Positions 5,693-62,824 of a stretch of DNA of 64,000 bases are shown here, piece by piece; position 1 is the stretch's first letter, and each line of letters opens with the position of its first letter. Position numbers and translations under genes: made by a program. The notes under the pieces were generated by a model, which saw only the letters and a list, made by a program, of their open reading frames with translations, did not search any database and was not told the DNA's origin. This DNA is from Deltaproteobacteria bacterium (lineage in GTDB: Bacteria > UBA10199 > JACPAL01), in contig JACPAL010000018.1 of the NCBI GenBank assembly GCA_016180855.1, positions 17,066 through 81,065 of the forward strand, read 5' to 3'.

Positions 5693-7684
5693 GTGAAAAC
5701 GAGTCCCGCTAAAAATCAGGAACCCTTTTCCTTTGAAGAAGCGGTTTTTAAGGCGAGGGAGGCACTGCTTTCGGATCAATCCCCTAAAGGATACTGGTGG
5801 TACACCCTTGAGGCGAATGAGACGATTGGGGCCGGCTTCATCCAGCTGATGCATTTTTTAGGTGATGTCGATGCCGAGGTCGAAAAGGGTCTCGCCAGAA
5901 GAATTCTATCGGAACAGCGGCAAGACGGCTCTTGGGCCATTTTTTACGGAGGGCCAGCGGATCTTTCGACATCGATTGAATGCTATTTTGCCCTCCGTCT
6001 TGCCGGCCATTCTCCGGATGAGCCGGCGCTGGAACGTACAAGACTGTTTATTCTCTCTCACGGTGGGCTTGAGAGGGTTCGGGTTTTCACCAAAATTCAT
6101 CTGGCGCTTTTTGGGTTGATTACATGGGCGAAGTGCCCCTCAATGCCGCTCTGGTTTATCCACCTGCCCCACTGGCTTGGAATTTCAATCTATGAATTCT
6201 CCAGTTGGGCAAGGGCATCGATTGTACCACTGTTAATTATCCTGGATCGAAAACCAGTCAGGCCTCTTTCTTTTGATCTGAAGGAGCTTAAAGTATCCCC
6301 TCCCTTACTCTCTCCCCTTAAAATAAGGGGAGGGATGGGGAGGGGATATCAGTTTCCATGGAGGAACTTTTTCCTTCTTTTAGACAAAATCTTCAAAGCT
6401 ACGGAAAAACTTCCTTTTCATCCCGGTAAACAACATTTTCTAAAGAAATGTGAGGAATGGATCAGACGTCATATCGAAAGGACGGAAGATATCTACCCCG
6501 CAATGGCCTATGCCGCCTTGGCCATGAAGGCGCTTGGGTATCCCAATAGTGATCCAACAATCCAGAAGGCGTTAGCAGGCCTTAGACGATTTCAACAAAG
6601 TCACCGGGGCACTGACTTACCGATGGTAAGTGATAAGTCGGTAGGGGGCGGAGCCCCCTCCGAGTATCTTATCCATCAACAGTGTTGCATCTCCCCCCTA
6701 TGGGATACCCCCTGGGCCTGTCATGCCCTCTTGGAATCGGGCCTTCCGGCCGACGACCCCCATCTGAAAAGGGCCGCAAAATTTCTCATTTCAAAACAGA
6801 TTGTGGACTTTCATGGCGACTGGTCCCTCAAAAACAGCAGCGCCAAACCAGGTGGTTGGGCGTTTGAGTTTCAAAATGACTATTTTCCCGATGTCGACGA
6901 CACGATTGAAATCCTCCGCTTCATGAAAAGGGTCGATCTGCCGGTATCAGAGAAGAAGGGGACAATCGATCGGGGGCTTGAATGGCTCCTCTCCATGCAA
7001 TCAAAAAACGGTGGTTGGGCCGCATTTGACAAGAACAATCTTTCTACCTGGGTCAACAAGATTCCATTCTCCGATCACGGGGCCTGCCTCGACCCGCCAA
7101 CCCCGGATATCACGGGTCGAATGATTGAATTGTTGGTCTTGTTTAATTATTCAAAGGAGGATCCAGTCATCCAAAACAGCTTGAATTTTTTGTTTAAAAC
7201 CCAGGAACCGAATGGATCCTGGAGGGGGCGATGGGGGGTCAATTACCTTTACGGAACCTGGTGTGTCGTTCAGGGACTCGCCATGATCCACGATGAAAAA
7301 ACAGGGCTCGCGATTGGCCGCGCGATACGCTGGCTCCAGTCGGTCCAGAACCCGGATGGCGGTTGGGGAGAATCCTGCCTTTCAGACAAGGAAAATCGGT
7401 ATCTCCCCTTAGAGGTTTCAGTTCCTTCTCAAACCGCCTGGGCCGTCATGACCCTGATCGCCGCCGGCAAAAGAAGTTCCGAGTCGTGTCGCCGCGGAAT
7501 TGATTTTCTTATTGCCTCACAAACAGCCGACGGCCGATGGGAGGAAAGACACTTTACAGGAACGGGATTCCCGGGACATTTCTACATCCGCTATCACGGC
7601 TACCGACAGTATTTTCCGCTGCTCGCGTTGGGGAAATATCGAACGGACAAAAGAGAGCTGAAAACTATCGCTTGTCCGGCTTGA
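5693..7684 (+). CDS. shc: squalene-hopene cyclase
   Basis: DVDDT (DxDDTA) catalytic motif, repeated QW motifs (GGW/GSW) and CxSPLWDT. 663 aa. Confidence 0.9.
   Translation: MKTSPAKNQEPFSFEEAVFKAREALLSDQSPKGYWWYTLEANETIGAGFIQLMHFLGDVDAEVEKGLARRILSEQRQDGSWAIFYGGPADLSTSIECYFALRLAGHSPDEPALERTRLFILSHGGLERVRVFTKIHLALFGLITWAKCPSMPLWFIHLPHWLGISIYEFSSWARASIVPLLIILDRKPVRPLSFDLKELKVSPPLLSPLKIRGGMGRGYQFPWRNFFLLLDKIFKATEKLPFHPGKQHFLKKCEEWIRRHIERTEDIYPAMAYAALAMKALGYPNSDPTIQKALAGLRRFQQSHRGTDLPMVSDKSVGGGAPSEYLIHQQCCISPLWDTPWACHALLESGLPADDPHLKRAAKFLISKQIVDFHGDWSLKNSSAKPGGWAFEFQNDYFPDVDDTIEILRFMKRVDLPVSEKKGTIDRGLEWLLSMQSKNGGWAAFDKNNLSTWVNKIPFSDHGACLDPPTPDITGRMIELLVLFNYSKEDPVIQNSLNFLFKTQEPNGSWRGRWGVNYLYGTWCVVQGLAMIHDEKTGLAIGRAIRWLQSVQNPDGGWGESCLSDKENRYLPLEVSVPSQTAWAVMTLIAAGKRSSESCRRGIDFLIASQTADGRWEERHFTGTGFPGHFYIRYHGYRQYFPLLALGKYRTDKRELKTIACPA
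6294..6348. repeat. GC-palindromic element (TTAA-centred subtype) inserted in-frame in shc
   Basis: atcccctcccttactctctccccttaaaataaggggagggatggggaggggat. Encodes VSPPLLSPLKIRGGMGRG. Confidence 0.65.
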
Positions 7685-27571: not shown

Positions 27572-27620
27572 CGGACCAATTTATAGGGTTGTCACACAAG
27601 GTTGTCTAGGGGAATTTAGC

Positions 27621-27690
27621 CCTCTCCCCTTGGCCTGCCCTGAGCGAACCTGTCCTGAGCATCGTCGAAGGAGCCGAAGGGCGGGTGAGG
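27621..27690. repeat. family-3 GC-rich palindromic element (C-rich left arm, G-rich right arm, core cctgagc...gtcctgagc...gtcgaagga), intergenic prototype
   Basis: ccctctccccttggcctgccctgagcgaacctgtcctgagcatcgtcgaaggagccgaagggcgggtgagggg, between the yraN stop and the fadD-like start. Confidence 0.7.
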
Positions 27691-27697
27691 GGAAAAA

Positions 27698-28758: not shown

Positions 28759-28775
28759 AGGAGGAGAGATTATTT

Positions 28776-32837: not shown

Positions 32838-32904
32838 AAGGGAACCTCTAATAATTCAAATTTTCGGCACCTCGAAAAACGGCCCAGCGGTTCGACAAGC
32901 TCAC

Positions 32905-33030
32905 CCTCCTGAGCAAAGTCGAAGGAATGCAAGGCGCCCGCAAGGCCGCGACCGGAGCGTACTTTCGTGGTACGTGAGGACGCGGACGAAGCGGGCAACA
33001 CAGCAGATGGGTAGTTTTTAGAGGTGCCCA
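32905..33030. repeat. family-1 related element with 5' cctgagcaaagtcgaagga module
   Basis: Core alignment to 16253-16345 and 47866-47970. Located upstream of yicC. Confidence 0.75.
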
Positions 33031-33033
33031 TAA

Positions 33034-33690
33034 CTACTCCAGTTTGAGTTTGGTCGACCCCAGCAAAACAACATCCCCTTTCTGAAGGAGCCGTGACTCG
33101 ACCTCAGCGCCATTCACAAAGGTTCCATTTTTACTCACCAAATCCAGAATTCCGACTCCAAGGTCATCATAGAAGATCATGGCGTGGAGACGAGAGATCG
33201 AGGAATCGGCGAGTGTTACATCCCCTTTTCGTTCAAACGCCCCCAACTTTTCGCCCTCACCCACTACCGCCCCCCTCTCCTTGTGAAATTGGGTACTGAC
33301 ATAACTCATGACCACCTTTTTGGAGACATCATCAAGACTGATGTTTGGACTTGAACTGAAAACCCGTGTCTTCTCCGTGTCGTTCAGAGATCTCCCCAAC
33401 GCACGACAACACCCTTTTTCAAGGGTAATCACCTCTCCCTTGTTCTTCCCCTCAACGACCTGAAATTGTATCGCAGGCCCGGCTGCTCCAGAGGCCTGAA
33501 ATAACTGTGTCTCTTCAAAACCGGTCGCCAATTGCTGGGATTCCTCAAGAAGAAGTGTCGGGATTCCCTCTCGAACAGGGAAGCTCAACTGACAGCTGCG
33601 ACAGCCAAGCTTCTCAGTCCCCGCCTCAAATTCCAACCGACCCTTGCATCGGGGACAGGCAAGGATGGAAAGGAGCTCCCGTTGAACCAT
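33034..33690 (-). CDS. Trm112-like zinc-ribbon (DUF343) fused to a C-terminal FHA domain
   Basis: N-terminal LSILACPRCKGRL...GCRSC zinc ribbon. C-terminal FHA signature GRS...ISRLHAMI...LDLVSKNGTFVNG. Confidence 0.65.
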   Translation of the reverse strand: MVQRELLSILACPRCKGRLEFEAGTEKLGCRSCQLSFPVREGIPTLLLEESQQLATGFEETQLFQASGAAGPAIQFQVVEGKNKGEVITLEKGCCRALGRSLNDTEKTRVFSSSPNISLDDVSKKVVMSYVSTQFHKERGAVVGEGEKLGAFERKGDVTLADSSISRLHAMIFYDDLGVGILDLVSKNGTFVNGAEVESRLLQKGDVVLLGSTKLKLE

Positions 33691-43106: not shown

Positions 43107-45766
43107 AGGTTCCGATAGGTTTCCGAGAGGCGTTCTACCTTCTCGACGTTGGTTCTCTGTTTTTGCCGCTCCTCCGCCACAAGTTCAGGGTCAGCATGAT
43201 TCAAAAAACCAGGGTCGGATAATTTTTTATGGAGTCGATCTCCAAGCTCGTTCAGCTTCTGAATCTCCTTTTCAAGGCGCTTCTTCTCCGTTTCAAGATC
43301 GACAAGTCCTTCCAGTGGGAGATAGAGATCCAACCGGCCGAGTGAATAGTGGGCCATTTTTTTTGAAACTGGTTTTGCGGAGACAAACTGGAGACTGCAG
43401 GAACGCGTCATCTTTTCTATCATCCCCTTTTCCCCTTCCAGCCAATGCCTCTCCTCCCTCTCCTCAACAGACAGGATCGGCTGAATCTCCTGGGCAGCCT
43501 GAATCCCATTCTCACCACGCAATGTCCGAAGTGCCGTCACAATCTCCATCAATCTTTCAACACGCCTTGGCTCTCCCTCAAAGTCCCATTGTTTGGGAGT
43601 CGGAAAAGATTCTATTCCGATCGATAGCCCTTCTTTCTGATTTAAAAACTGACAGATCTCCTCCGTGATAAACGGCATGAATGGATGAAGGGCCCGGAGG
43701 GTTTCATCCAGAATCTCGGAGAAGACCGACTGATTCAACCGAACCTTGGAGAACTCCAGATACCAGTCACACAAGGTGTGCCAAAAAAAGTCATAAAGTT
43801 CCTTCGCCGCCTCATCAAAACGATACCCCTCGATTCCCCTTGTTATTTTTGCGAGTGAAGAGGCCCACTTCTGCAAAATCCATTGATCATAGTCGCTTAA
43901 GATCTCGCGAGAGATCTCCTGAGGCGGCAGGCTCACAAAAAAACGCGCCGCGTTCCAGATCTTGTTACAGAAGTTCCGATACCCCTCAATCACGGGCTCG
44001 GAGAGCTTCACATCACGACCGGGCACCGCCAGGACCGCCAACGTAAAACGAAAGGCATCCGTACCAAATTGATCCATGATCGTGAGCGGATCAATGACAT
44101 TTCCCTTCGACTTGCTCATCTTCTGTCCCTGCGCGTCACGCACGAGGGCATGGATATAAATATCCTTAAAAGGAACCTCCCCCATAAACTCAAGCCCCAT
44201 CATCATCATCCGGGCGACCCAGAAAAAAATGATATCGAAGCCCGTAATCAGAACCGATGTGGGGTAAAAGGTCTTAAGCTCCTCTGTCTGGTCCGGCCAA
44301 CCGAGTGTAGAAAAGGGCCAGAGGGCGGAGGAGAACCAGGTATCGAGAACATCGGAATCTTGCTCAAGTTCGGTCGAGCCGCAGGTGGGACATTTTTTAG
44401 GTATATCACGGGAAACAATAGGAGGACATATCCCCCCCTTCCCCCCCCTTAATTTAAGGGAGGGGATACAGTACCACGCCGGAATCCGATGCCCCCACCA
44501 GATCTGACGTGAAACACACCAATCTTTAATCTCACCCATCCAGTTCGCGTAGGTCTTTGTCCAATTGTCCGGAAAGAATCGTGCCTTTCCATCCTGAACC
44601 GCTTGAAGCGCCTTTTCCGCGAGTGGCTTTGTTTTTACAAACCACTGCATCGAAAGATACGGTTCCACAACAGTTCGACAGCGATAACAATGGCCAACCG
44701 AGAGCTTGTGCGGTTCAACCTTTTCAAGAAACCCTTGCTGCTCCAGCTCTTCGACAATCTTTTTTCGGCATTCGAAACGATCCAACCCCTGAAAGGAGAC
44801 CGCGTTTTCGTTCATCCTCCCTTCATCCGTAAAAATATTAATACGAGGGAGCTTATGGTCGTTTCCAAAAATGAAATCGTTGAAGTCATGGGCCGGGGTT
44901 ACTTTAACCGCACCCGTCCCAAACTCCTTGTCAACACGAGGGTCAGAAATAATAGGGATCTCCCGATTGACTAAAGGCAATAATAGTTTTTTACCAATAA
45001 GACCTTTATACCGTTCATCTTCAGGGTGAACCGCAACGGCGGTATCTCCAAGCATCGTTTCAGGACGCGTGGTGGCCACCCTCACCCCCACCCCCTCTCC
45101 CGCCCTTCGGCATGGCTCAGGGAAGGCCAAGGGGAGAGGAGAGGCAAATGGGTAGCGAACAAACCACAAATGCCCATTCGTCTCATGATGCTCTACCTCC
45201 AGATCGGAAAGCGCCGTCTTGCAACGAGGACACCAGTTGATGAGATAGAGATCACGGTAGATCAGCCCCTTGTTGTAAAGACGGACAAACGCCTCACGCA
45301 CGGCGCGCGAGAGCCCCTCATCCATCGTAAACCGTTCGCGCTTCCAGTCACAGGAGGCCCCCAATCTTTTTAGTTGATGAATGATCTGTCCACCCGACTG
45401 CCCCTTCCATTCCCAAACCTTTTCAATGAAGCGTTCCCTTCCCAAATCCTGTCGTTTCTTCCCCTCCTTGGCTATGTCACGCTCTACAACGTTCTGCGTC
45501 GCAATGCCGGCATGATCAGTCCCCGGCATCCAGAGGACATTGAACCCTTTCATCCGTTTGTAGCGGGCAAGGATGTCCTGGAGGGTGTTGTTCAGGGCAT
45601 GCCCCATATGAAGCGAGCCCGTGACGTTCGGTGGCGGGATCACCATACAAAATGGGGGTTTGGATGATTTTGGCTCTGCATGGAAGTAGCCTTCCTTGAG
45701 CCAGACTTCTGACCATCGTCTCTCAACTTCATGCGGCTCGTACGCCTTGGGGAGTTCCCTCTTCAT
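43103..45766 (-). CDS. valS: valine--tRNA ligase
   Basis: HMGH and KMSKS motifs, plus a C-terminal coiled coil. 887 aa. Contains two in-frame palindromic element insertions (see repeats). Confidence 0.95.
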   Translation of the reverse strand: MKRELPKAYEPHEVERRWSEVWLKEGYFHAEPKSSKPPFCMVIPPPNVTGSLHMGHALNNTLQDILARYKRMKGFNVLWMPGTDHAGIATQNVVERDIAKEGKKRQDLGRERFIEKVWEWKGQSGGQIIHQLKRLGASCDWKRERFTMDEGLSRAVREAFVRLYNKGLIYRDLYLINWCPRCKTALSDLEVEHHETNGHLWFVRYPFASPLPLAFPEPCRRAGEGVGVRVATTRPETMLGDTAVAVHPEDERYKGLIGKKLLLPLVNREIPIISDPRVDKEFGTGAVKVTPAHDFNDFIFGNDHKLPRINIFTDEGRMNENAVSFQGLDRFECRKKIVEELEQQGFLEKVEPHKLSVGHCYRCRTVVEPYLSMQWFVKTKPLAEKALQAVQDGKARFFPDNWTKTYANWMGEIKDWCVSRQIWWGHRIPAWYCIPSLKLRGGKGGICPPIVSRDIPKKCPTCGSTELEQDSDVLDTWFSSALWPFSTLGWPDQTEELKTFYPTSVLITGFDIIFFWVARMMMMGLEFMGEVPFKDIYIHALVRDAQGQKMSKSKGNVIDPLTIMDQFGTDAFRFTLAVLAVPGRDVKLSEPVIEGYRNFCNKIWNAARFFVSLPPQEISREILSDYDQWILQKWASSLAKITRGIEGYRFDEAAKELYDFFWHTLCDWYLEFSKVRLNQSVFSEILDETLRALHPFMPFITEEICQFLNQKEGLSIGIESFPTPKQWDFEGEPRRVERLMEIVTALRTLRGENGIQAAQEIQPILSVEEREERHWLEGEKGMIEKMTRSCSLQFVSAKPVSKKMAHYSLGRLDLYLPLEGLVDLETEKKRLEKEIQKLNELGDRLHKKLSDPGFLNHADPELVAEERQKQRTNVEKVERLSETYRNL
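44431..44470. repeat. GC-palindromic element (TTAA-centred subtype) inserted in-frame in valS
   Basis: atccccccccttccccccccccttaatttaagggaggggat. Encodes PSLKLRGGKGG, the same SLK[IL]RGG peptide as the shc copy. Confidence 0.65.
45066..45134. repeat. family-3 palindromic element (short form) inserted in-frame in valS
   Basis: The reverse complement cctctcctctccccttggccttccctgagc..ccgaagggcgggagaggggg aligns with 27621-27690. Encodes PLPLAFPEPCRRAGEGVGV in a variable ValS loop. Confidence 0.65.
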
Positions 45767-45793
45767 GAGAATCAGGACTTAGAAAAAAATGGA

Positions 45794-46615
45794 CTAAATT
45801 GCACGAAACTTTTTATCAGCAACGATCCTGAGCCCCTTCAAGGTCAGAAACGGCTCCAGCTTTTGAATGGTCCGACACTCCTTGGCAATCAAGGTGGCGA
45901 ATCCACCAGTCGCTATCACTGCCGTTTTCATACCAAGCTCCTTCTGAATGAGCCCTACCAGCCGATCGACGAGACCGGCGTATCCATAATAAACGCCTCC
46001 CTGGATACACTCCCTCGTCTGCCTCCCAATAACCCGCTTCGGTTTTGCAATTGAAACGAGCGGTAGCTTGGCTGTCTTCTCATGTAACGCCTCAAGGCAG
46101 ATTCGTAAGCCAGGAACGATCGGTCCACCAAGGTATTCCCCCTGCGCTGAAACGACATCCAAGGTCGTCGCAGTCCCGAAATCAATGATGATAATGGGAA
46201 CGGTCTTTAAATCCCCCCTCGCCCCCCTTTGACTTGTCCTGAGCCCTGTCGAAGGACAAAGGGGGGTTGGGGGGATTTTCCATGCCGCAACTGCATTCGC
46301 AATCCGATCGGCCCCCACTTCTGACGGTTTTTTTGTCTTAAACCTGATCGGCAGTTTTGTCCTGGATGTCACAAACAGAGGCTCAACTCCAAATTTCTTT
46401 CTGAGAAGAAGACGGAACGGTTTATCCAGTCGGGGGACAACACTTGCCACGACAACGCAATTAACTTGCGAGATCCAAAGTTTCCGCAAAAGGGAGAGCC
46501 CCTTGTGGGTCTCAAAACGACGATGCCACCGGAGCCGCTCCCCCTCAAATAGGCCGACGACAATATTTGTATTGCCTACATCAATGGCGAGAATCTTTCT
46601 CTTCCCCTCACCCAC
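45794..46615 (-). CDS. coaX: type III pantothenate kinase
   Basis: ILAIDVGNTN and IIIIDFGTATT phosphate motifs. About 20-25 aa longer than typical because of a palindromic in-frame insertion. Confidence 0.85.
   Translation of the reverse strand: MGEGKRKILAIDVGNTNIVVGLFEGERLRWHRRFETHKGLSLLRKLWISQVNCVVVASVVPRLDKPFRLLLRKKFGVEPLFVTSRTKLPIRFKTKKPSEVGADRIANAVAAWKIPPTPLCPSTGLRTSQRGARGDLKTVPIIIIDFGTATTLDVVSAQGEYLGGPIVPGLRICLEALHEKTAKLPLVSIAKPKRVIGRQTRECIQGGVYYGYAGLVDRLVGLIQKELGMKTAVIATGGFATLIAKECRTIQKLEPFLTLKGLRIVADKKFRAI
46211..46277. repeat. family-3 palindromic element inserted in-frame in coaX
   Basis: atcccccctcgccccccttt-gacttgtcctgagccctgtcgaaggacaa-aggggggttggggggat. Encodes IPPTPLCPSTGLRTSQRGARGD between conserved CoaX segments. 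Confidence 0.7.
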
Positions 46616-47183
46616 AAAGGTCTCCTTGAAGGGCCATCATCTTTTCCAGCAGCTTATCCAAGATTTTTTCCCGATCAAAGGTCTTCCCCGTTTCTATCTT
46701 GAGCGATGTCGCAGTGTTACGCACCTCTGGTGAAAAATCGTCCAGATCGGTATTCACATTAATTCCAACCCCGCAGACAACCCATCGTATCCTCTCTCCC
46801 TCCGAACTCATTTCGCAGAGGATCCCTGCCACTTTCTTGTCATGAATTAAAAGATCATTAGGCGCTTTGATCCGGAGCCCATCAGCAATATACTGCCGTA
46901 AAAGATCCTCAACAACAAAGGCGATCTTGGGGGTGATCTTTACGGCATCGGAGGGTGGACGATTGGGGCGAAGCAAAAAAGAGAGATACAGATTTTTCCC
47001 GGCAGGTGATTCCCATTTCCTCCCTTCACGACCCCGTCCCACCGTCTGATGATCCGCCATGACAACGAGCCGTTCCGCCTCTCCTGCCCTCGCCCGGCGG
47101 ATCACCTCTTCGTTTGTGGAATCGATTGAGGAGAACCGGAGCACCCTAAAGTTCCACTTGTTTTCTGTTTTCATCTGATCCAC
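46608..47183 (-). CDS. birA: biotin--[acetyl-CoA-carboxylase] ligase (no N-terminal HTH)
   Basis: ADHQTVGRGREGRKWESPAGKNLYLS biotin-binding loop. 8-nt overlap with coaX. Confidence 0.8.
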   Translation of the reverse strand: MDQMKTENKWNFRVLRFSSIDSTNEEVIRRARAGEAERLVVMADHQTVGRGREGRKWESPAGKNLYLSFLLRPNRPPSDAVKITPKIAFVVEDLLRQYIADGLRIKAPNDLLIHDKKVAGILCEMSSEGERIRWVVCGVGINVNTDLDDFSPEVRNTATSLKIETGKTFDREKILDKLLEKMMALQGDLCG

Positions 47184-47185
47184 AA

Positions 47186-47842
47186 TTGCCCTTACTTATG
47201 ACAAGTCATCCTTCTCGTAAAGTGTTCCTGCTGTTGGGTGCATTGTATCTAGTCGTCGGTTTTTCGCTCGGGCAGACCTCAATCCCCTCCTCCTGCGGAA
47301 CCGATACGACAAGTCAGGCAGGAAGCGGTACCTCCTCTTCGAACTCGGGAGGAAGTTCAGGGAGTTCACTAACACTCACAAGTGATGACATTACAAGCGG
47401 CGGAACAATCGCCTCCACCTTTGCAATGACCGATTGCATGGGAGGCAACCAGTCTCCCCATCTCGCCTGGTCAGGTACCCTCCCCTCCGGAACCTTGAGT
47501 CTTGCCGTGACCGTAATTGACACAAGCTTTAACAACGCCGTTCACTGGCTCCTTTACAACATCCCAACCACGTCAACGACGCTTTCGAGAAACAGTTCTC
47601 CGAGTGAAATCTCAAATACAACCCGCGAGGTGCAGAATGTCTACGGGGATATCGATTACGGCGGCCCTTGCCCGCCGACCGGCGAGAGCCATACCTACCA
47701 GTTTACAGTTTGGGCGCTTGATGTTGCCGACCTCATGAACGTCTCCGGTTTCAACGCCAACAGCGGCTCCTCCGCCTACTCGCTGCTCCAGGAGCATGAC
47801 TTGGCATCGGCCAGTTTCAACGCCACTTTCGTTGGCCCTTAA
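47186..47842 (+). CDS. YbhB/YbcL (PEBP-family) protein with N-terminal signal/lipoprotein-like anchor and Ser/Thr-rich linker
   Basis: GGNQSPHLAW, HWLLYNIP and YGGPCPP...HTYQFTVWAL PEBP motifs. Confidence 0.75.
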   Translation: MPLLMTSHPSRKVFLLLGALYLVVGFSLGQTSIPSSCGTDTTSQAGSGTSSSNSGGSSGSSLTLTSDDITSGGTIASTFAMTDCMGGNQSPHLAWSGTLPSGTLSLAVTVIDTSFNNAVHWLLYNIPTTSTTLSRNSSPSEISNTTREVQNVYGDIDYGGPCPPTGESHTYQFTVWALDVADLMNVSGFNANSGSSAYSLLQEHDLASASFNATFVGP

Positions 47843-47995
47843 CAGGATAGCGACAAAGGCCCATCTACTGCGGGCTTCGACTGAGCTCAGCCGAAGTCTT
47901 GCCCGCTTCAACCGCAATCCTCACGTACCGGTAAAGTACGCTCCGGTTGCGGCCTTGCGGGCGCCTTGCATCTGGACCTTTGTCGCTATCCTGTT
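47841..47995. repeat. family-1 MITE-like element, full copy with 17-bp perfect TIRs CAGGATAGCGACAAAGG and TTAA/TTAT flanks
   Basis: aacaggatagcgacaaaggcc at the left end and ggacctttgtcgctatcctgtt at the right. Fills the convergent PEBP / Na-Pi transporter gap exactly and supplies part of both stop codons. Confidence 0.8.
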
Positions 47996-49637
47996 ATTCG
48001 ATTTCTTTTCCCGGCATCGAGGACTTCACAATCATCATAAGCTTCGTATTGACCCGGCGAAAATTAGAGAGAAGATCAAGGTGGATCGAACTCGTTTCAA
48101 ACGCCTCCTTGATCCCCCTGTGCAATCTCTGGAGATGGCCCTCGCGATAACGGCTCTCCAATTCCTCCAGATGTTTTTCGTGACGCACAATTTTGCGCGC
48201 CAGAGATTCATCCTCCGTCGTCAGGGTCGAGAGGGCGAGTTGAAAGTTTTCCAGGACCTTGCTGTGTAAATCCTGGATCTCTTTCCAACCCTCGCCTGAG
48301 AAAACTCGTCCCTTATGGATCTTCTTCTGGGCCAGCTCCAGAATATTCTTGTTGATGATATCACCGATCTCTTCAAAATCACTCGTCATCGCGACCAGGC
48401 TGAGTTCCAGGCGTCCCTGCTCGGGATTGATTGCCTCCTGTGAAATTTTTGCAAGATAGAATTTAATCTCCCGATCCAGGATATCCACCTTATCGTCCTT
48501 CTCCTCGATCATTTCGATCAGCAACGGATCATCCTTCTCAAAGACTTCGATCAGGTCACGAAACATCTCACAGGCAATCTCTCCCATCCGAAGAATTTCG
48601 CGTTTTACATTGGCAAACGCCAGAGCGGGAGAGTCAGTGGCATCCTCCGAAAGATACTTCGGCCCAAAAAGGTCCTCGCCGGGAGGTGGAATCGGAACCA
48701 CCTTCCGGATTATCCAGGCACCCTGACGGATGAAAGGAAGAAAAAAGACAGAAAGGGCGAGGTTAAAACAGACATGGGATAAGGCAATCTGACCAGCCAC
48801 ATTTCCTGACAAGGAGAGAAGCGAGGATAACCACTCAACCCCCTTGACTGTATTGGCAAGAAAAACAAGGGCAACAGAGGCACCACTCAATTTAAAAAAC
48901 AGATGGGCAAGTGCCACCTGCCTCGCCGGAGCCCCACCACGCGCCCCGTGTAGAAAGGTCATGGCACACGTCCCAACATTCGCCCCCAAGACAAGAGGAA
49001 CGGCATGGGACATATCAATGACCTGGGAGAGCGCCATCGCAATCGTGAGTCCCAGGGTTGTCGCACTATTTTGAACCAGGGCCGTGAATCCAATTGCCAA
49101 AAGAAAACTGTAGGAAGGTTTTTCCGATAAGAGATTAAAAATTTCGACCAAAAAGTGATTTTCACGAAGGGGAGTCGTGATCTGAACCATCAACTGCATC
49201 CCCAAAAAAACAAAGCCAAAGCCCATCACAATCATACTGAGGTAGCGGATTTTTTTACTCTTAAAAAAAATCTCGATAAAGATTCCCGTCACAAGCATGA
49301 GGAGGGCATACTCCGCCACCTGCCGGATCGAAAGCAGGATGACGACGAACGCAGTCCCAATATCCGCCCCGAGGATCACCCCCATCGCCTGCTGGAGAGA
49401 AAGGACACCGCTTGTTGCAAATCCGATCAGCATAACGGTTGTCGCAACGGAGCTTTGCAGAATGAGGGTCACAAGAACACCGGTCAAGAGGGCCGAAAAT
49501 CGGTTCTCGGTGAGCGCTGAAACAAGCCGCCTCAACCGATTACCTGCCAGGAGCTGGATTCCGATGCGCGATTGGCGAATTCCATAAATGAAAATGGCAA
49601 TCGCCCCCAGAAAAGAAATAAGCGAGAAGGATGTCAA
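47994..49637 (-). CDS. Na/Pi-cotransporter II-related protein with C-terminal PhoU domains
   Basis: Duplicated NptA membrane repeats plus C-terminal PhoU-like helices. Confidence 0.8.
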   Translation of the reverse strand: MTSFSLISFLGAIAIFIYGIRQSRIGIQLLAGNRLRRLVSALTENRFSALLTGVLVTLILQSSVATTVMLIGFATSGVLSLQQAMGVILGADIGTAFVVILLSIRQVAEYALLMLVTGIFIEIFFKSKKIRYLSMIVMGFGFVFLGMQLMVQITTPLRENHFLVEIFNLLSEKPSYSFLLAIGFTALVQNSATTLGLTIAMALSQVIDMSHAVPLVLGANVGTCAMTFLHGARGGAPARQVALAHLFFKLSGASVALVFLANTVKGVEWLSSLLSLSGNVAGQIALSHVCFNLALSVFFLPFIRQGAWIIRKVVPIPPPGEDLFGPKYLSEDATDSPALAFANVKREILRMGEIACEMFRDLIEVFEKDDPLLIEMIEEKDDKVDILDREIKFYLAKISQEAINPEQGRLELSLVAMTSDFEEIGDIINKNILELAQKKIHKGRVFSGEGWKEIQDLHSKVLENFQLALSTLTTEDESLARKIVRHEKHLEELESRYREGHLQRLHRGIKEAFETSSIHLDLLSNFRRVNTKLMMIVKSSMPGKEIE

Positions 49638-49650: not shown

Positions 49651-52614
49651 TTAGGAAGCTAAAGGTAGTGCCTCAGCCAACCTCACAGAAACAATCTTTG
49701 AAATGCCCGCCTCCTCCATCGTGACGCCATAAAGGCGGTGGCATTGCTCCATGGTCCTCCGGTTGTGCGTAATCAGGATGAACTGGGAGCGCGGAAGAAT
49801 CTCGGAGAGAAGTTTATGAAAGCGTTCCACATTGGTATCATCCAGAGGGGCATCCACTTCATCCAGAATACAAAAGGGTGATGGTTTAACTAAAAATATT
49901 GAGAAAATAAACGCAACGGCCGACATCGCCTTCTCTCCTCCCGACAAGAGACCGATGTGGGAGAGTTTTTTACCCGGCGGCTGGACAAAAAGATCCATCC
50001 CCTGGGAGGCTCCATCCTCCGACTCCGTTAAGCGGAGTTCGGCCGAACCACCACGGAAAAGCCTCGGGAAAAGCGCCTTGAACTTTTCATTGACCAAGAC
50101 AAACGTCTCCTCAAATCGCTTTCGGGTCATCTGGTTGATCTTCTGTATCGCCTTCTCAAGGGCGAGAAGAGACTGTTCGAGGTCTTCCGTCTGCCGCCCC
50201 AAAAATTCCTGGCGTTCCCGAAGCGCCTCATATTCCGGGATGGCCCCCAGATTGACATCCCCAAGCTTTTCAAGACGTGCCTTAAGTTCCGACAGGTTTT
50301 TCTCTTCCAGAGAACGATCGATCGGCACTGCCTCCTCCCCAAAAGCAACTTCCGTTAGCGAGGTGTTATATTTTTCAAAAATCTGTTCACCCATGTGGCG
50401 AAGATCTCCCTCCAGACGTGACAACGTAACACGCAAGTCCCCTGTATGACTCCTGGCGAGATCGTACTCTTTTCGGAGAGTGCGAGTCCTGGCCTCCTCC
50501 TCTTCCAATGTACGGGAAATCGCCTGATGCTCCTTGCGGATCTGATCGGCAGAAAGGGTTAAGGCCTCTACTTTTCCCTGCAAAACAGCCCTCTCCGCCT
50601 GCTCGCTCTCTTTCTCTTCCTGTAGTCTGTTGATTTTTTCTTCGGCGCGCCGGAGGGCCTCTTCCACTTCCTGTAACCTTTTCAGTTCTTTGGTGAGATG
50701 CTCTCCCTCCTTGTCCAGAGAGATTTTTTTGATATCCTCTTCATGTTTCCTCCGGTTTAAATCCTCCAAGTCAAGCGAGAGCTCCGAAAGGGTTCCTTCA
50801 AACTGGCTCACGCTATCCTCCTTCAAACTGATCTCCTCTTCCAGGCGGGCGACCTCGATTCGAAGCTCCCGGATCTCCCTCTTCTTTTCCAAAAGCATCT
50901 TACCTGGCAATCCGGCGGATCCCCCGCTCACAACACCGAACGGATCGACCACCTCTCCCTCTAAAGTAACAAGCGTTTTGTGGTGACCATTCGACCGCCA
51001 AAGATCGATCGCCTTATCAAGATTTTGAACAAGAATGACATCTCCCAAAAGATACTGACCTACCTTCAAGGTATCGGCTTTCAACTTCACCAGGTCCAGC
51101 AGTGGGCCAATGACACCCGACTCCTGGTAGGGAAACGGATTTTCCTCTTTCTCACGGATATCAAGCGCAATGAAGGTGCTCCGTCCCGAGGCCTGTGACT
51201 TCAGGAAAGAGACCGCCTCCAAACCTTCTTCATGGCTTTTGACAATAACATACTGAAGTTTTTCCCCTAGCGCCGCGCTGACGGCCATCTCATACTCCTG
51301 GGGCGAATCAACGTAATCCGCAACAACCCCAAGGACCCCGGACGATGTGCTCCCCTCCCTCTTGGCCCTAAGGATGTTACGCACCCCTTCCTGATAACCT
51401 TCAAAATTTCTTTCAAGATCAACAAGAGATTTGAAGCGTGACCTTTTCAGGCTGATCTCTTCACGACGAATCGCCAACTCCTTTTCGAGAACCTCTTTCC
51501 TCTCTTTTCCGGAGGCAATCCTCGCCCGAAGCTCCTCCATCTCATGATGCACGGAAGAGGAATCGCTTCTCAAAATCTCGAGCTGCTGAGCGATACGGCC
51601 TACCTCTTGCCTGATTTTCTCTCCCTCCTGCAGAATCTGGGTCGACGAGGCCTTCTCCTCCTCGAGGCGTTTCTTCTCACGAAGCTGAAACTCCTCCTTC
51701 GCCTGTAAAAGTTTCAGGCGACTTGTTGCCTCGAAAAGGGCCTCTTGTCTGCGGTTCAGCTCCCGATCTTTCTCCAAAAGCTGAAGACGTGCCGACTCCT
51801 GGCTGGCGTCAAGTGCGGAGATCCTGGTCTGCGATTCCAGCTCACGCCGGTTCCAATCAGAGAGCAAACTTTCCAACTCCCCTTTCTCCGTATTCGCCTC
51901 CCGGTAACGAAGACTCGCTAATTTCAAATCAAGACTTTTGACCTCCTCCTTGAGCTGCCGATATTTTTCCGCCTTCTTGACCTGCCGATCGAGCGAGCCA
52001 ATCTGGCGTTGCACTTCCACCAGAATATCCTTCAGACGGGCAAGATTCTGGCGTGTGGCCTCCATTTTCCGGACTGCCGCCTCCTTACGCGCCTTGAATT
52101 TTGAGACACCAGCCGCCTCTTCAATGAGCAGACGACGATCCTCCGGCTTGGCATTAATTGCAAAATCGATTCTGCCCTGCTCGATGACGGAATAGGCGCG
52201 ATGCCCAACGCCGGTTCCAAGAAAAAGGTTGATGATATCCCGAAGCCGGCAGGGGATCTTGTTGATCAAATACTCGCTCTCTCCATCGCGAAAGAGACGC
52301 CGGGTAATCGTAATTTCTGAAAATTCCGTGTAGGGAGCTGGTGCAATCCCATCTTCTGTCGAAAAGGTGAGTGAAACCTCCGCCATGTTAATCGGCGGCC
52401 GGGTTTGAGATCCGTTAAAGATGACATCTTCCATACCGCGACCACGCAGACTCTTGGCGCTCATCTCCCCCATCACCCACCGGATCGCATCAACAATGTT
52501 TGATTTTCCGCAGCCGTTCGGCCCGACAATCCCGATCAATGGGGAATCGAAGTCAATAATCGTAGGGTCGACAAAAGACTTAAACCCTACCATTTCTAAT
52601 TTCTTAATCTGCAT
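49651..52614 (-). CDS. smc: chromosome segregation protein SMC
   Basis: Walker A GPNGCGKSN, long coiled coils, a hinge, and C-terminal LSGGEKAMSAVAFIFSIF...ILDEVDAPLD. Confidence 0.9.
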   Translation of the reverse strand: MQIKKLEMVGFKSFVDPTIIDFDSPLIGIVGPNGCGKSNIVDAIRWVMGEMSAKSLRGRGMEDVIFNGSQTRPPINMAEVSLTFSTEDGIAPAPYTEFSEITITRRLFRDGESEYLINKIPCRLRDIINLFLGTGVGHRAYSVIEQGRIDFAINAKPEDRRLLIEEAAGVSKFKARKEAAVRKMEATRQNLARLKDILVEVQRQIGSLDRQVKKAEKYRQLKEEVKSLDLKLASLRYREANTEKGELESLLSDWNRRELESQTRISALDASQESARLQLLEKDRELNRRQEALFEATSRLKLLQAKEEFQLREKKRLEEEKASSTQILQEGEKIRQEVGRIAQQLEILRSDSSSVHHEMEELRARIASGKERKEVLEKELAIRREEISLKRSRFKSLVDLERNFEGYQEGVRNILRAKREGSTSSGVLGVVADYVDSPQEYEMAVSAALGEKLQYVIVKSHEEGLEAVSFLKSQASGRSTFIALDIREKEENPFPYQESGVIGPLLDLVKLKADTLKVGQYLLGDVILVQNLDKAIDLWRSNGHHKTLVTLEGEVVDPFGVVSGGSAGLPGKMLLEKKREIRELRIEVARLEEEISLKEDSVSQFEGTLSELSLDLEDLNRRKHEEDIKKISLDKEGEHLTKELKRLQEVEEALRRAEEKINRLQEEKESEQAERAVLQGKVEALTLSADQIRKEHQAISRTLEEEEARTRTLRKEYDLARSHTGDLRVTLSRLEGDLRHMGEQIFEKYNTSLTEVAFGEEAVPIDRSLEEKNLSELKARLEKLGDVNLGAIPEYEALRERQEFLGRQTEDLEQSLLALEKAIQKINQMTRKRFEETFVLVNEKFKALFPRLFRGGSAELRLTESEDGASQGMDLFVQPPGKKLSHIGLLSGGEKAMSAVAFIFSIFLVKPSPFCILDEVDAPLDDTNVERFHKLLSEILPRSQFILITHNRRTMEQCHRLYGVTMEEAGISKIVSVRLAEALPLAS

Positions 52615-59846: not shown

Positions 59847-59946
59847 AACCACTCATCGAATCGAGAAATTCCTTGTTGGTCTTTGCGTTCTGCATCTTGT
59901 CGGTCAAGAACTCCATCGCATCGACCACGTTAAGCGGTTGCAGGAC
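59847..59946 (-). pseudogene. displaced duplicate of the last 33 codons of rho
   Basis: 100 bp identical to 62825-62924, encoding [33 protein letters not shown]. About 12 nt of residual similarity (HLNR versus HLDRK) continue upstream, then the sequence is unrelated. Confidence 0.65.
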
Positions 59947-62824
59947 ACGATTCAAATGAGTAACCGTTCTACTCAGAGAGCCCACAATAACCAGGGATCG
60001 GACCGCTGTTTCCGTCAGGATCAATACAGGTTTCCGTCGGAAGACAGTCAATATCGCTCGAATCAATTCTGCCTGCCCTTGTTGGATCGCAGATGTACTC
60101 CTGCACGGAATAAATAGTACGGCCATAACTTAATCTCGAGTGACAAGAATCAGCATAAATAAATGATTGATCTAGACTATCATGTACTGTCAACGTCACG
60201 GAACCTCCAATCCCTGGCATCATTCCACCATCGCTATCATCACAGCTAAAGGTAATACCTTCGTCAATTTCCTCATTGCAGTTGTCATCCCGGCCATCCA
60301 GCCGTTCGAGTTCTATACCGGGGTTTGTAGAAGCTCTATTATCGTCACAATCCCCACCCCCAAAGGAACAAATAGAAAGTATCCCATCCGAGACCATAGC
60401 CATATTCAGGTCGCAATAGTTATCACGATCATCATCACAACCCTCATCAACTCTCCCATTACAATCATTATCAGTATTGTCGCAGATTTCAGGGGCATAA
60501 ACACAATCTGGTTCACCTAAATCAATCTGTACCACGGCTACCCTCTCCGAAGAAGTCGATGGCCCGACAAAGCGGACCTGCCATCCAAGACCTGTCGTAC
60601 ATGTTTCGCCAGGAAGGATAAAACCATCAAAAAGGTCATCCCTCCAATCCTCGCGAGAGTTGGGGCTACAATCAAGCAAATAGGTATGGCGGCCATTCTC
60701 GTCTGTTGTACATCTCAAGAAAAGAACGCCGATCGTTGCAAAATCAAAAGAATACAGATTTTCGAGACGAGATTGATCTGCAGAAAGGATGGCATCCATA
60801 ATTATCATGCGATCATAACCAAGGGGCTCCCTGTATTCAACGGATAGGGTGTCACAAGGTTCCGTGACGAAGCGTTCTGCCCGGTAATCGTGAACGACGC
60901 CACTGGTCAGGGCATTATCTACTTCAAGCTGGATACATTGAGGATCGGTACTACCAGCTTCAACGGCCCCCAAGAGATCGGGGAGAGCAGAAGATAAACC
61001 AGCCTCCATCTCCAACCACCCCAATTTTTCCTTATAAGCACAGTTAAAATGGCCATGGCCAGGGTAGGCAGCCATCGTATCAAAGGGGTCCCCATAATCC
61101 GACCTCTCAAGACAACTCCCCCCAAAGACCGACTCGCCACAATCGAGGTCATGCGCATGATTCAAACCTAAGACATGCCCCCCTTCATGAAGGATAGTTT
61201 CATCATCAAAATGGTTACGCCCCATCGTGATGGTGTGCAAGGCAACCAACCCATCATCCGTGGGCCACTCATGCCTCCCTAAATATCTGCCATTGCCTGC
61301 AGCGGTAGGATACAAAAGAAGCCAATCATAATTGGCAAAGTTCACCTGATCCTCACAGAGACGGATCATAGTTGGAATGATAAGACCAGAAGAGATCGAC
61401 GGTCGCGTGCTATCTGCATAGGCCTCACAAACATCAAATCCTATGGAAAACTGACCAAAGGAAAGTTCTCTGAAGCTCTCTTCGGCCGATCTTGTCTCAC
61501 GATCAACCGTCGCCCGATCACTGATCGCCGCCTCATAAGGATCATTTTGCCAATGAACATACAAAACAATCCCTCTGGCGCCAGGACCCACTGATAAATT
61601 CACTAAGCTCCGAAATTCGTCTGGAAGAGTTTCATCGCTCAAGATAGTGGGATCGTTTAAATCCACTAAAGAATAACTCTGCAACACAGCCCCCATTTCC
61701 AATAACATTACAGCAAGGGAATTCATCTCAACAAAATTCATATCGGCGAGGAAGGTCGTGTCGAGATGAGCAAAGGCTACCGGGTCGCTAAATTGACTCT
61801 TAAAACTTTCATAGAAAGCAGTGGCTGCTTTGCCCACCTCAGAACACCAATTTTCCCCTTCAAGTTGCCTGAAAAACGCCATCTGATCTGAAATCAGATC
61901 AAGTAATTTCCCCTCCCCGATGAACTTTTCATAAAGCGCAGGACTTAAGTTCCCAACCCTTAAGATCGCTTGCTCAAGTTGCTCGAGTCTTTGGGGCCAT
62001 ACCAGCTTGAACTCCTCACGAAACAGTTGATTAACAAGACGAGGCGCCCGATGACTAAAATTCGCAATCGCTATTTTGGCCAAATCAGACTCGCTTTCTT
62101 TAATCAAATCCCCTTTCAGAACAGAAAGAATCTTGGCTATTTCATTGATCTTCGATACTTCCGGGGTACATTGAACTGATCCAAACTCAATAAGATCTTT
62201 TGATAGAAGTTGCTCCAGTTCCGCTGCCTCACAAAGGGCAATTTCTCTGGATAGACCAACGCTGTCCATCTCCTCTTCCAACGATTTTCGGGATTCACGA
62301 AGAACGGTGAGAAAATTTTCCATCGCCAGTTTTCCGCCCATTAACTTTTTCATCTCTTCCTCAATTCTTCTCCCCTCAATAATAAAAAGAAGAATCATCT
62401 CATTATCGAGAATCGCTCCTTCTTCCATCAGTCGCATCATCTCTGACTCTTTTTCCAGTAATCCCTGGATTCCTGACTCGACCTCTACCAGTCTCTTTTC
62501 AACTTCATCTTGTTTGAAGCGGACGGTTTCAAGGCGGGAGGATATCAGAGAGAGGGGGGGGGTACCCTCCGGCGGAAAGGGGCAGCTAAACGCCCAAAGT
62601 TGGTTTGGCAGGGAGAAAACAAACAGGAGAACAACCAGGATCGGTATGTTGCGTGGCATAATCACCTCCCGTGAATGGTAGATATGCCATATTCATGCCA
62701 AATTCTGATTGTATAAAACTAGGTGATCAACTTTATGAAACTATTGTTAAATCTGAGTGTGGTCTTGTCTCTTTGTGAAGAGTAAAACGAGAAATGAAGT
62801 TCTGGTGAAAGAAAGTCTATTCTC
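59947..62824 (-). mobile_element. AT-rich single-gene islet inserted at the 3' end of rho, bounded by 100-bp direct repeats; no integrase present
   Basis: Perfect direct repeats at 59847-59946 and 62825-62924. The interior GC is about 44% against about 53% in the flanks. It carries only the metalloprotease gene and its AT-rich promoter. Confidence 0.5.
59969..62665 (-). CDS. secreted metzincin-like zinc metalloprotease with N-terminal coiled-coil region and C-terminal MopE-like Cys/Asp-rich repeats
   Basis: Signal peptide, HEGGHVLGLNHAHD (HExxHxxGxxH) and repeats such as CDDNRASTNPGIELERLDGRDDNCNEEIDEG. RBS GGGAGGTGA upstream. AT-rich (about 44% GC) relative to the flanks. Confidence 0.75.
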   Translation of the reverse strand: MIMPRNIPILVVLLFVFSLPNQLWAFSCPFPPEGTPPLSLISSRLETVRFKQDEVEKRLVEVESGIQGLLEKESEMMRLMEEGAILDNEMILLFIIEGRRIEEEMKKLMGGKLAMENFLTVLRESRKSLEEEMDSVGLSREIALCEAAELEQLLSKDLIEFGSVQCTPEVSKINEIAKILSVLKGDLIKESESDLAKIAIANFSHRAPRLVNQLFREEFKLVWPQRLEQLEQAILRVGNLSPALYEKFIGEGKLLDLISDQMAFFRQLEGENWCSEVGKAATAFYESFKSQFSDPVAFAHLDTTFLADMNFVEMNSLAVMLLEMGAVLQSYSLVDLNDPTILSDETLPDEFRSLVNLSVGPGARGIVLYVHWQNDPYEAAISDRATVDRETRSAEESFRELSFGQFSIGFDVCEAYADSTRPSISSGLIIPTMIRLCEDQVNFANYDWLLLYPTAAGNGRYLGRHEWPTDDGLVALHTITMGRNHFDDETILHEGGHVLGLNHAHDLDCGESVFGGSCLERSDYGDPFDTMAAYPGHGHFNCAYKEKLGWLEMEAGLSSALPDLLGAVEAGSTDPQCIQLEVDNALTSGVVHDYRAERFVTEPCDTLSVEYREPLGYDRMIIMDAILSADQSRLENLYSFDFATIGVLFLRCTTDENGRHTYLLDCSPNSREDWRDDLFDGFILPGETCTTGLGWQVRFVGPSTSSERVAVVQIDLGEPDCVYAPEICDNTDNDCNGRVDEGCDDDRDNYCDLNMAMVSDGILSICSFGGGDCDDNRASTNPGIELERLDGRDDNCNEEIDEGITFSCDDSDGGMMPGIGGSVTLTVHDSLDQSFIYADSCHSRLSYGRTIYSVQEYICDPTRAGRIDSSDIDCLPTETCIDPDGNSGPIPGYCGLSE

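Follow-up and report, generated by a model that had tools for sequence, protein, structure and literature searches.

Rickettsia palindromic elements (RPEs) are AT-rich sequences. As described by Ogata et al. (2000, 2002) and recounted in PMC10969869 and PMC6649704, they are palindromic repeats that occur both between genes and in frame within housekeeping genes, and they measure approximately 100 to 150 bp (PMC3184786, PMC10969869). Stable secondary structure is held to be rare in coding sequence; PMC6649704, published in NAR in 2019, gives only a few cases, and the RPEs are the main bacterial one. Here we describe a GC-rich palindrome that lies in frame inside coaX, the gene for a type III pantothenate kinase (CoaX), in a stretch of 64,000 nt from a Deltaproteobacteria bacterium (assembly GCA_016180855.1, contig JACPAL010000018.1, positions 17,066 to 81,065), which is referred to below as the window. 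We consider it likely, with a probability of roughly 0.78, that a permissive surface linker of CoaX received, in frame, a short palindromic repeat of probably selfish nature, and that the protein tolerates it.

As far as the RPEs are portrayed in these sources, the coaX element resembles them in belonging to a set of dispersed palindromes that are found both in intergenic DNA and in frame within unrelated housekeeping genes, in adding to the host protein a peptide that its fold can accommodate, and in decaying in relatives. Several copies are present in the genome (at least six in 64 kb), and those in coaX, valS (two copies) and nadE are in frame; for CoaX, the fold is retained in an AlphaFold2 (AF2) model. 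The element differs from the RPEs in size, at 66 nt (a 42-nt base plus 24 nested nucleotides), and in being GC-rich with C6/G6 arms. Furthermore, its host is not Rickettsia, and copies of the base motif turn up in many phyla as well as on viral contigs; the two are set apart here by description.

Repetitive extragenic palindromes (REPs) are extragenic by definition, and one of their ends is usually marked by a GTAG or CGTC tag (PMC3116915, PMC3733652). Like the REPs and REPINs, the present repeats are GC-rich imperfect palindromes of 20 to 40 nt that apparently have many copies, are sometimes arranged as inverted doublets and are presumed to be mobilised in trans. However, four to five of the six copies in the window are intragenic, and elsewhere 32 to 50% lie in long open reading frames (ORFs) among the matches listed; the element termini are AAAT-C6 and G6-ATTT, with no GTAG or CGTC tag, and no link to a REP-associated tyrosine transposase (RAYT) was seen among 324 loci and the window. 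With miniature inverted-repeat transposable elements the repeats share terminal inverted repeats, the whole base element being an inverted repeat. As for target-site duplication, the AT/AAAT that flanks the base element belongs to the palindrome itself, and 3-bp repeats around the nested module are confined to two of two copies in this genome.

The small dispersed repeats (SDRs) of heterocystous cyanobacteria (Nostoc) are reportedly mobile-looking units of 21 to 27 nt that nest in repeats and in hairpin loops. Our elements recall the SDRs, so portrayed, in that the loop of the base palindrome houses a module of 21 nt (24 nt if its flank is included), a doubly nested copy is present at 27621-27693, and many matches to the base motif are cyanobacterial; compared by description only, they differ in occurring also in Nitrospirota, Proteobacteria, Planctomycetes and Chloroflexota, on viral contigs, and in coding sequence.

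The mobile GC clusters of yeast mitochondria (PMC4478555) and the "byp" elements of Magnusiomyces, which are skipped by translational bypassing (cited in PMC6649704), are likewise short GC-rich palindromic mobile elements that invade protein genes. Those elements are organellar, however, and the Magnusiomyces ones are bypassed, whereas the coaX insert is in frame, free of stops and presumably translated. Repeats fused into ORFs are also documented for BRE (Bordetella), BOX, RUP, SPRITE, ERIC and the Coxiella QMITE (PMC3184786, PMC10969869); these too are small non-autonomous repeats that are occasionally internal to protein genes without breaking the frame, but they exceed 80 to 100 bp and are clade specific. 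Neither the C6/G6 hairpin nor the CCTGAGC...GTCGAAGG module is among the repeats described in PMC3184786 and PMC10969869, and literature searches on the motif's DNA, its peptides and allied terms, the reach of which did not include Elhai et al. 2008 (Genome Res 18:1484) on the SDRs, returned no description of the motif.

The palindrome in coaX and its protein context

The host gene and the element are as follows.

45794..46615, minus strand: coaX, type III pantothenate kinase, 273 aa from a GTG start (266 aa as called by NCBI)
46211..46276, minus strand: in-frame composite palindrome of 66 nt, encoding residues 114-135

The element (ATCCCCCCTCGCCCCCCTTTGACTTGTCCTGAGCCCTGTCGAAGGACAAAGGGGGGTTGGGGGGAT on the plus strand) comprises exactly 66 nt, or 22 codons, in frame with coaX, and codon bookkeeping shows that it encodes the CoaX segment IPPTPLCPSTGLRTSQRGARGD. 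A repeat search placed 23-nt inverted-repeat arms at 46209-46231 and 46257-46279. Four of the six frames of the element are free of stops, including all three on the coding strand; therefore, coaX remains open. The coding-strand RNA fold has an energy of -40.3 kcal/mol (z = -3.86), which was equalled by 1 of 200 dinucleotide shuffles. The fold scan, which like the module and arm scans below covers these 64 kb, took each 80-nt segment in 10-nt steps (mean, -16.9 kcal/mol; standard deviation, 5.6 kcal/mol). Here the coaX hairpin (-43.8 kcal/mol) ranked second in stability, after a related C/G-arm palindrome in shc (-48.3 kcal/mol).

The same insert is present in independent assemblies, namely, a Logan contig (L001) and two NCBI metagenome-assembled genomes (MAGs; L203 and L204); the protein or DNA is identical in Logan contigs and in NCBI MAGs named "Deltaproteobacteria bacterium" (MBI2500182.1, MBI4196640.1 and MBI2068180.1). 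An assembly artefact was therefore ruled out as the origin of the insert. Across the entire window there was no Rfam match at the gathering threshold, and permissive Rfam scans of 46150-46340 and 27560-27760 yielded only generic miRNA-precursor-like hairpins, far under the cut-offs; a known RNA family was rejected on this basis. An intrinsic terminator was rejected as well, since a consensus scan of 43000-47300 left the element unflagged, with only three U residues after the stem.

The identity of the host protein is supported by the NCBIfam equivalog NF009855 (244 bits versus a cut-off of 233), the match to which is split into two stretches by the insert, by TIGR00671 (a score of 192 versus a cut-off of 58) and by matches to type III pantothenate kinase (PanK-III) structures in the PDB down to an E value of 3e-48. 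In HMMER comparisons with the PDB, 2h3g, 3djc and 9b78 aligned as two blocks, and query residues ~114 to 138 were passed over. For 2h3g (Bacillus anthracis CoaX), query residues 8-118 correspond to chain residues 2-124 and query residues 139-267 to chain residues 123-251, so that approximately 20 query residues have no counterpart.

A sequence-only reading of this DNA had proposed that the palindrome is inserted in frame between the two phosphate-binding motifs, immediately before DFGTATT. The orthologue alignment it called for bears this out: the 66-nt insert is located after GADR (residues 101-104) and nine residues ahead of D145 of DFGTATT, and the segment is missing from solved CoaX structures and from relatives at 47 to 59% identity, which have 8-residue linkers and no G/C runs. 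The encoded peptide, estimated in that reading at roughly 22 aa, is exactly 22 aa, and the excess over a typical CoaX is also 22 residues rather than the 25 or so that had been suggested. When these residues are removed, the linker from NAVA to IIIIDFG is AWK+LKTVP, of 8 residues, which is also the linker length in B. anthracis (GIHLYGSP) and in the relatives P0006 and P0007. No CoaX of the same length but without palindromic DNA was found among the relatives, and the only two with longer linkers, L002 and L005, both carry this kind of palindrome at that position.

The ASKHA motifs DxGNT (first phosphate motif), GADR, DFGTATT (second phosphate motif) and ATGG are intact, and the invariant columns D12, G14, N15, G101, D103, R104, D145, G147, T148, T151, T236, G237 and G238 are all kept in the window protein. 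An AF2 model built with a 71-sequence alignment had a pLDDT of 92.7 and a pTM of 0.90. Ten-residue blocks scored a pLDDT of 93 to 98 except at both termini and over residues 111-140 (76, 55 and 66), which were modelled as coil between the helix at 102-113 (GADR) and the strand at 141-146 (DFGTATT). Foldseek aligned the model with the PanK-III structures 3djc, 2h3g, 9b78 and 2gtd (TMt of 0.84 to 0.85). The structure model that the sequence-only reading had asked for thus presents the insert as a low-confidence coil with the PanK-III fold kept. The CoaX enzyme is predicted to be intact, with an extra floppy loop, and the coaX gene is very likely functional. The CoaX protein of Sorangium (P0022) has a far bigger insert, of approximately 40 aa, in the same loop, which points to a permissive site.

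coaX sits in a conserved PBP / birA-coaX-valS arrangement, and synteny is seen in L002, L005 and L006. The neighbouring birA gene (46608-47183) encodes only 191 aa, which match positions 4-164 of a 235-position ligase-domain model; it has no C-terminal part and no repressor domain, and it overlaps the coaX start by 8 nt.

Nested anatomy and change between relatives and strains

The base unit is a palindrome of approximately 42 nt with the structure ATC6-N3-C6-TTT-GAC-AAA-G6-N2-G6-AT. In coaX, its parts and the nested module, listed without a strand, are as follows.

46211..46230: C-rich arm of the base palindrome, ATCCCCCCTCGCCCCCCTTT on the plus strand, an exact fit to the arm pattern
46231..46233: first GAC, left part of the base loop TTT-GAC-AAA and candidate 3-bp target duplication
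46234..46254: nested 21-nt module TTGTCCTGAGCCCTGTCGAAG, of the CCTGAGC-N3-GYCGAAG family
46255..46257: second GAC, direct repeat of 46231-46233
46258..46276: G-rich arm of the base palindrome, AAAGGGGGGTTGGGGGGAT on the plus strand

The base palindrome also occurs alone. An intergenic copy in a Nitrospirae MAG (L067), AAATCCCCCCTTGCCCCCCTTTGACAAAGGGGGGATGGGGGGATTT, corresponds to the coaX element minus 24 nt, barring the short spacers between the C and G runs, and its loop is the uninterrupted CCCCCCTTTGACAAAGGGGGG; the C6-TCG-C6 arm of the coaX element is also found in L026, a Deltaproteobacteria MAG. These solitary copies mark the coaX element as composite, and on comparison with them it is a base palindrome that carries the 21-nt module and a second GAC in its loop, TTT(GAC)-21 nt-(GAC)AAA. 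The C6-TCG-C6 arm with AAAT ahead of it was found in L026, L047, L083 and L091. In the window, the arm pattern had 7 matches with up to three mismatches (3 distinct sites) versus 1.8 expected, and the module CCTGAGC-N3-GTCGAAGGA had 4 sites with up to two mismatches (27654, 32908, 46238 and 45103) versus 0.04 expected. The site at 45103, inside valS, had been missed by the sequence-only reading.

That reading had regarded the repeat families as mosaic, a view that is supported and can be sharpened to one of nesting, given the base palindromes without the core in L067 and L026. Its statement that the coaX core is shared with 27621-27690 applies to GTCCTGAGC-N3-GTCGAAGGA and not to the rest of the 26-nt core. 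Of the two places where it saw the module at the edge of a family of ~110-nt intergenic repeats ("family 1"), the one at 32908 is among these four sites, and 37455-37470 is only a degenerate fragment. A metagenome scan for the 17-nt junction of base and core, GTCGAAGGACAAAGGGG, gave 75 loci, which were mostly chance matches and none of which had C6/G6 arms; it did reveal the module TTGTCCTGAGC-N3-GTCGAAGGACAA within another repeat family. A separate multi-copy repeat, ...aagcgaggcaataaactttttgcagtccctggtccacTTGTCCTGAGCGNAGTCGAAGGACAAAGGGGGttaccagcagacggaaaaaagttt, holds the coaX-core hairpin module in L128, L138, L139, L152, L161, L172 and L186 (metagenome Ga0247841 and others).

A sister of the nested module differs between strains in the adjacent valS gene, at the following feature.

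45076..45145, minus strand: second in-frame palindrome, in valS, encoding ASPLPLAFPEPCRRAGEGVGV; CT-rich/GA-rich arms with a nested CCTGAGCCATGCCGAAG module

L204 is another MAG of the same population and shares 98.7% identity with the window across 4,370 nt. The sole indel in their pairwise alignment is an in-frame segment of 24 nt in the loop of the valS palindrome (~45105-45129), which is missing in L204: the window reads CTCTCCCCTT(GGC)CTTCCCTGAGCCATGCCGAAG(GGC)GGGAGAGG and L204 reads CTCTCCCCTC-GGCGGGAGAGG, and ValS is 887 aa in the window versus 879 aa in L204. The 24-nt module is present in the window strain and in L203, and the site is empty in the valS gene of L005. The 21-nt valS unit CTTCCCTGAGCCATGCCGAAG and the coaX module TTGTCCTGAGCCCTGTCGAAG are identical at 16 of 21 positions, and both are flanked by 3-bp direct repeats (GGC in valS and GAC in coaX). 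The valS difference reflects a recent insertion that duplicated a 3-bp target or else a precise deletion through this microhomology; whichever the direction of change, the module is unstable on a strain time scale.

The L203 MAG (GCA_016187815.1) also lacks 251, 85 and 50 nt relative to window positions 51629-51879, 49340-49424 and 48449-48498, respectively, in SMC and Na/Pi-cotransporter genes that are split in that MAG. These indels were rejected as signs of element mobility; they are non-palindromic, not multiples of three and gene-breaking and are therefore probably MAG assembly errors.

The CoaX linker itself varies among relatives. Those at 60 to 66% identity keep PBP / birA-coaX synteny, L002 and L005 also have valS downstream, and the linkers are as follows.

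L002: ATCCCCCCCGGCCCCCCTTTTTCAAAGGGGGG (IPPGPPFSKGG), that is, ATC7GGC6TTTTTCAAAG6, base for base the same as an intergenic copy in a Methylobacter MAG (L059)
L005: L002-type unit in reverse orientation (PTLKKGGRGG)
L007: only GGGGGGACGAGGGGGAAT (GGRGG) remains, a G6-ACGA-G5 arm
L006: degenerate

The distant relatives P0006 to P0010 have ordinary linkers. L002 and L007 are mutually closest (79%), yet the orientation of the unit differs between them. These linkers would fit either repeated insertions into the CoaX loop or one old palindrome with loop inversion and differential loss of arms. Both scenarios are consistent with a decaying passenger that is not essential, and both speak against any conserved function of the site.

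The valS gene of L005 (~6400-6700) has an in-frame palindrome of its own, CCCCCTCTCCTTAACAAAGAGAGGGGGAGTTGAGGGAGAGGGG (PLSLTKRGGVEGEG), where the valS genes of the window and of L002 have an empty site; from this comparison, it is another lineage-specific in-frame insertion. At valS site 1, L002 has other palindromes, GTCCCGCC-ACGA-GGCGGGAC and GCCCTCTCCC-GCCAA-GGGGAGAGGGC.

Copies across phyla, on viral contigs and in the window

One genome per GTDB species was scanned with the pattern CCCCCC-N2-3-CCCCCC-TT-N0-30-AAGGGGGG, and a viral scan was made of IMG/VR contigs. The base motif was found at no fewer than 120 loci in the genome scan (at least 120) and in at least 127 copies in the viral scan. 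The matches listed include cyanobacteria, Nitrospirota, Proteobacteria, Planctomycetes and Chloroflexota, and they share traits that lie outside the search pattern: an (A)AAT prefix, a TTT-NNN-AAA loop and sometimes a second G run followed by ATTT. Among the viral matches listed, an "AT" prefix is present in 88 of 127 copies, and TTT-NNN-AAA is the commonest loop. The coaX base unit therein belongs to a family with the motif (A)AAT-C6-N2-3-C6-TTT-N3-AAA-G6, with or without N-G6-ATTT.

Among the matches listed, open frames of 200 aa or more enclose 42 of 130 genomic copies, versus 69% of random positions; for viral copies the figure is 63 of 125, versus 63% of random positions. By these counts, the copies are mostly intergenic and depleted in genes, yet frequently tolerated inside genes. 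Pfam domains were present in nine of the ten host ORFs scanned. The hosts with Pfam domains include LeuRS (Microcoleus), a UvrA-like protein, RecJ, a radical SAM protein, CbiG/CobJ (two copies), GH3, an RlpA/SPOR protein, a Chromatium hybrid histidine kinase and a CHAT protein. Intragenic copies elsewhere encode peptides of the PPxxKGGxGG type.

In Dulcicalothrix desertica (L076), two inverted base-palindrome doublets (2075-2150 and 3539-3610), 1.4 kb apart, adjoin a gene for a Y1 (IS200-like / RAYT-like) transposase (1071-1838), which is 236 nt from a doublet. An association with RAYT / Y1 transposases was not borne out at the loci covered, the L076 gene being the only one found across 324 loci and the window; since a tblastn search with it returned only itself, the L076 neighbourhood is treated as coincidence.

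At least six related palindrome copies are present within the 64 kb of the window, four to five of the six inside genes. Those not yet introduced are as follows.

44430..44467, minus strand: third in-frame palindrome, in valS, ATCCCCCCCTTCCCCCCCCTTAATTTAAGGGAGGGGAT, encoding IPSLKLRGGKGGI in a Cys-rich loop
23267..23295, minus strand: short member in nadE, ATTCCCCCTCGCCCCCATTGGGGGGATTT, encoding NPPNGGEGE at the linker between the CN-hydrolase and NAD-synthase domains
6294..6348, plus strand: related palindrome in the squalene-hopene cyclase (SHC) gene shc, TATCCCCTCCC...GGGGAGGGGATA, encoding VSPPLLSPLKIRGGMGRGY (-48.3 kcal/mol)
27621..27693, no strand assigned: intergenic copy of the valS-site-1 family, with the doubly nested module GCCCTGAGC(GAACCTGTCCTGAGCATCGTCGAAGGA)GCCGAAGGGC

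The copy at 27621-27693 lies between the genes for an AMP-binding enzyme and a UPF0102 protein, and together with that at 45076-45145 it represents the sister family CTCTCCCCTTGGCCTKCCCTGAGC...GCCGAAGGGCGGGWGAGGGG. A clean insertion is not supported for the shc palindrome, as the SHC of A. acidocaldarius has a Pro/Gly loop, VPPRRRGAKGGGG, of similar length in the same place.

The window holds other repeats as well. Family 1 has copies at 16245-16356, 17653-17782, 32927-33038, 37468-37622 and 47901-47997 (the last in reverse), with the core ATGCAAGGCGCCCGC..GACCGGAGCGTACTT...GGTACGTGAGGA..GCAGATGG, strong internal hairpins and no Rfam matches; modules of the CCTGAGC/GTCGAAGG type adjoin some of these copies (32880-32926 and 47875-47896). 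A third short repeat, GATGGGCCTTTGTCARCATCCTGTTAG, is found at 21398-21424, 28734-28760 and 47971-47997, with an inverted pair at 28695-28759. There is also a perfect 100-nt direct repeat (59847-59946 and 62825-62924), the second copy of which is the 3' end of rho (62823-63968, minus strand) and the first of which closely follows the downstream end of an 898-aa ORF (59969-62665), in which a weak MopE metal-binding motif is the only match. The arrangement suggests that approximately 3 kb of DNA was inserted at the end of rho with a 100-nt duplication. No insertion sequence was seen among the window ORFs examined.

Origin of the insertion and its meaning

We postulate that a base hairpin of approximately 42 nt, a member of a motif family that spans many bacterial phyla and viral contigs, entered the CoaX linker and that the 21-nt CCTGAGC-N3-GYCGAAG module would have lodged in the loop of this hairpin, with the repeated GAC on both sides. 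The ribosome would read through the hairpin and make a 22-residue Pro/Gly/Arg-rich loop, probably disordered, between the helix at 102-113 and the strand at 141-146, which would leave the ASKHA fold and the catalytic motifs intact. Both units would presumably be mobilised in trans by an enzyme, and the element itself is probably neutral or selfish. The common form of the base motif is asymmetric, with two C runs and one G run, and a fold-back extension of it would give the symmetric form; speculatively, this may hint at a single-stranded, hairpin-primed intermediate.

It is quite unlikely that the palindrome instead arose in place, from a Gly-rich (GGN-rich) loop that seeded a quasi-palindrome completed by intrastrand template switching or hairpin-primed synthesis. 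Such an origin would agree with the match between the G-run arms and native Gly positions in the CoaX, ValS and SHC loops, with the symmetric two-G-run form, which is the expected fold-back product of the asymmetric one, and with the different loop orientations in L002 and L005, as template switching can yield; furthermore, Pro (CCN) and Gly (GGN) codons are reverse complementary, and hence a PP...GG peptide is inherently palindromic. However, identical units, with the AAAT prefix, the TTT-NNN-AAA loop and the 3-nt spacer, are intergenic in unrelated phyla and present on viral contigs, the L002 coaX unit equals the intergenic Methylobacter copy in every base, and the nested 21-nt module is unrelated to the local coding sequence and recurs elsewhere. 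Template switching may have made the arms symmetric, but it leaves the origin of the element unexplained. A functional hairpin acting in cis within the birA-coaX-valS operon, as RNA or DNA (by pausing or partly terminating transcription, directing RNase processing or stabilising the mRNA), selected to set the coaX:valS ratio, is decidedly unlikely. The stability of -40 to -44 kcal/mol, the near-perfect G:C arms despite the coding location, the AAAT...ATTT flanks, which recall bidirectional terminators, and the two further hairpins in downstream valS would all suit such a role. Against it, the terminator scan was negative because only three U follow the stem, no Rfam family reached its gathering threshold and generic hairpins stayed far below theirs, the structure is truncated, inverted or lost at this site in relatives, and copies are found in unrelated loops, genes and intergenic DNA of many phyla, all of which a passenger fits better.

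The two remaining explanations concern the peptide. That the 22-residue loop is adaptive, for example as a new interaction or regulatory surface, with the palindrome incidental, is very unlikely: it does lie at the junction of the two ASKHA domains, adjoining the second phosphate motif, Sorangium has also expanded this loop, and the frame is kept in several strains, but the loop has a low pLDDT and no predicted secondary structure, relatives keep differing fragments in differing frames, and the peptide is simply what the repeat encodes, PPxxKGGxGG or RGxRGD strings being found in unrelated proteins. Programmed bypassing, in which the insert would stay untranslated as the ribosome hops from Lys113 (AAA) to an AAG two codons past the element, is extremely improbable. 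A very stable hairpin does stand between the Lys codons AAA (46277-46279) and AAG, and palindromic inserts are bypassed in a mitochondrion, as cited in PMC6649704; however, the insert has no stop or frameshift, so that bypassing is not needed, its length is a multiple of three, as for a translated insert, and the nascent-peptide or take-off signals of known bypassing are not in evidence.

Several observations weigh against our preferred reading, a tolerated insertion of a mobile repeat. No transposase or other mobilising gene was found at the examined loci, and tblastn found no homologue of the Y1-like gene in the 324 loci and the window, barring the L076 gene itself. The 3-bp flanking repeats, seen in both copies of this genome and not in other genomes, were noticed post hoc. 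The valS indel is known from MAG assemblies, and the sister MAG L203 has obvious assembly deletions. Finally, the G-rich arms often coincide with natively Gly-rich loops, so that part of an arm could be native: CoaX relatives end the linker in GG, GP or GA, the L005 valS gene encodes KDGKG where the window encodes RGGKGG, and A. acidocaldarius SHC has PPRRRGAKGGGG.

In coaX itself, this is an ordinary tolerated insertion. A broader proposal is possible but doubtful, namely, that the base hairpin and the 21-nt module are undescribed pan-bacterial, phage-borne, ultra-small mobile DNA of 20 to 45 nt, perhaps with hairpin-primed or single-stranded transposition, which would routinely seed Pro/Gly-rich PPxxKGGxGG loops in the essential proteins of many phyla; coaX would then record two successive nested insertions.

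Within 64 kb of a free-living groundwater bacterium, housekeeping genes thus hold no fewer than four GC-rich palindromes in frame (in coaX, in nadE and twice in valS), and the same hairpin motif, of approximately 30 to 45 nt, is present inside real genes of cyanobacteria, Nitrospirota and Proteobacteria and, on viral contigs, in long ORFs. The strains that differ by 24 nt in valS provide a natural before-and-after pair. The practical message is modest: the CoaX insert marks a permissive position for loop engineering. If the pattern is general, such repeats would be a widespread and overlooked origin of loop insertions in bacterial proteins and would clutter annotation with spurious "PPLxKGG" ORFs, and they would pose a mobile-DNA problem, that is, how sequences of 21 to 45 nt move and by which enzyme. 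The main interest lies in the element, two ultra-small repeats, one nested in the other, whose families extend across phyla and viral contigs and recur inside essential genes.

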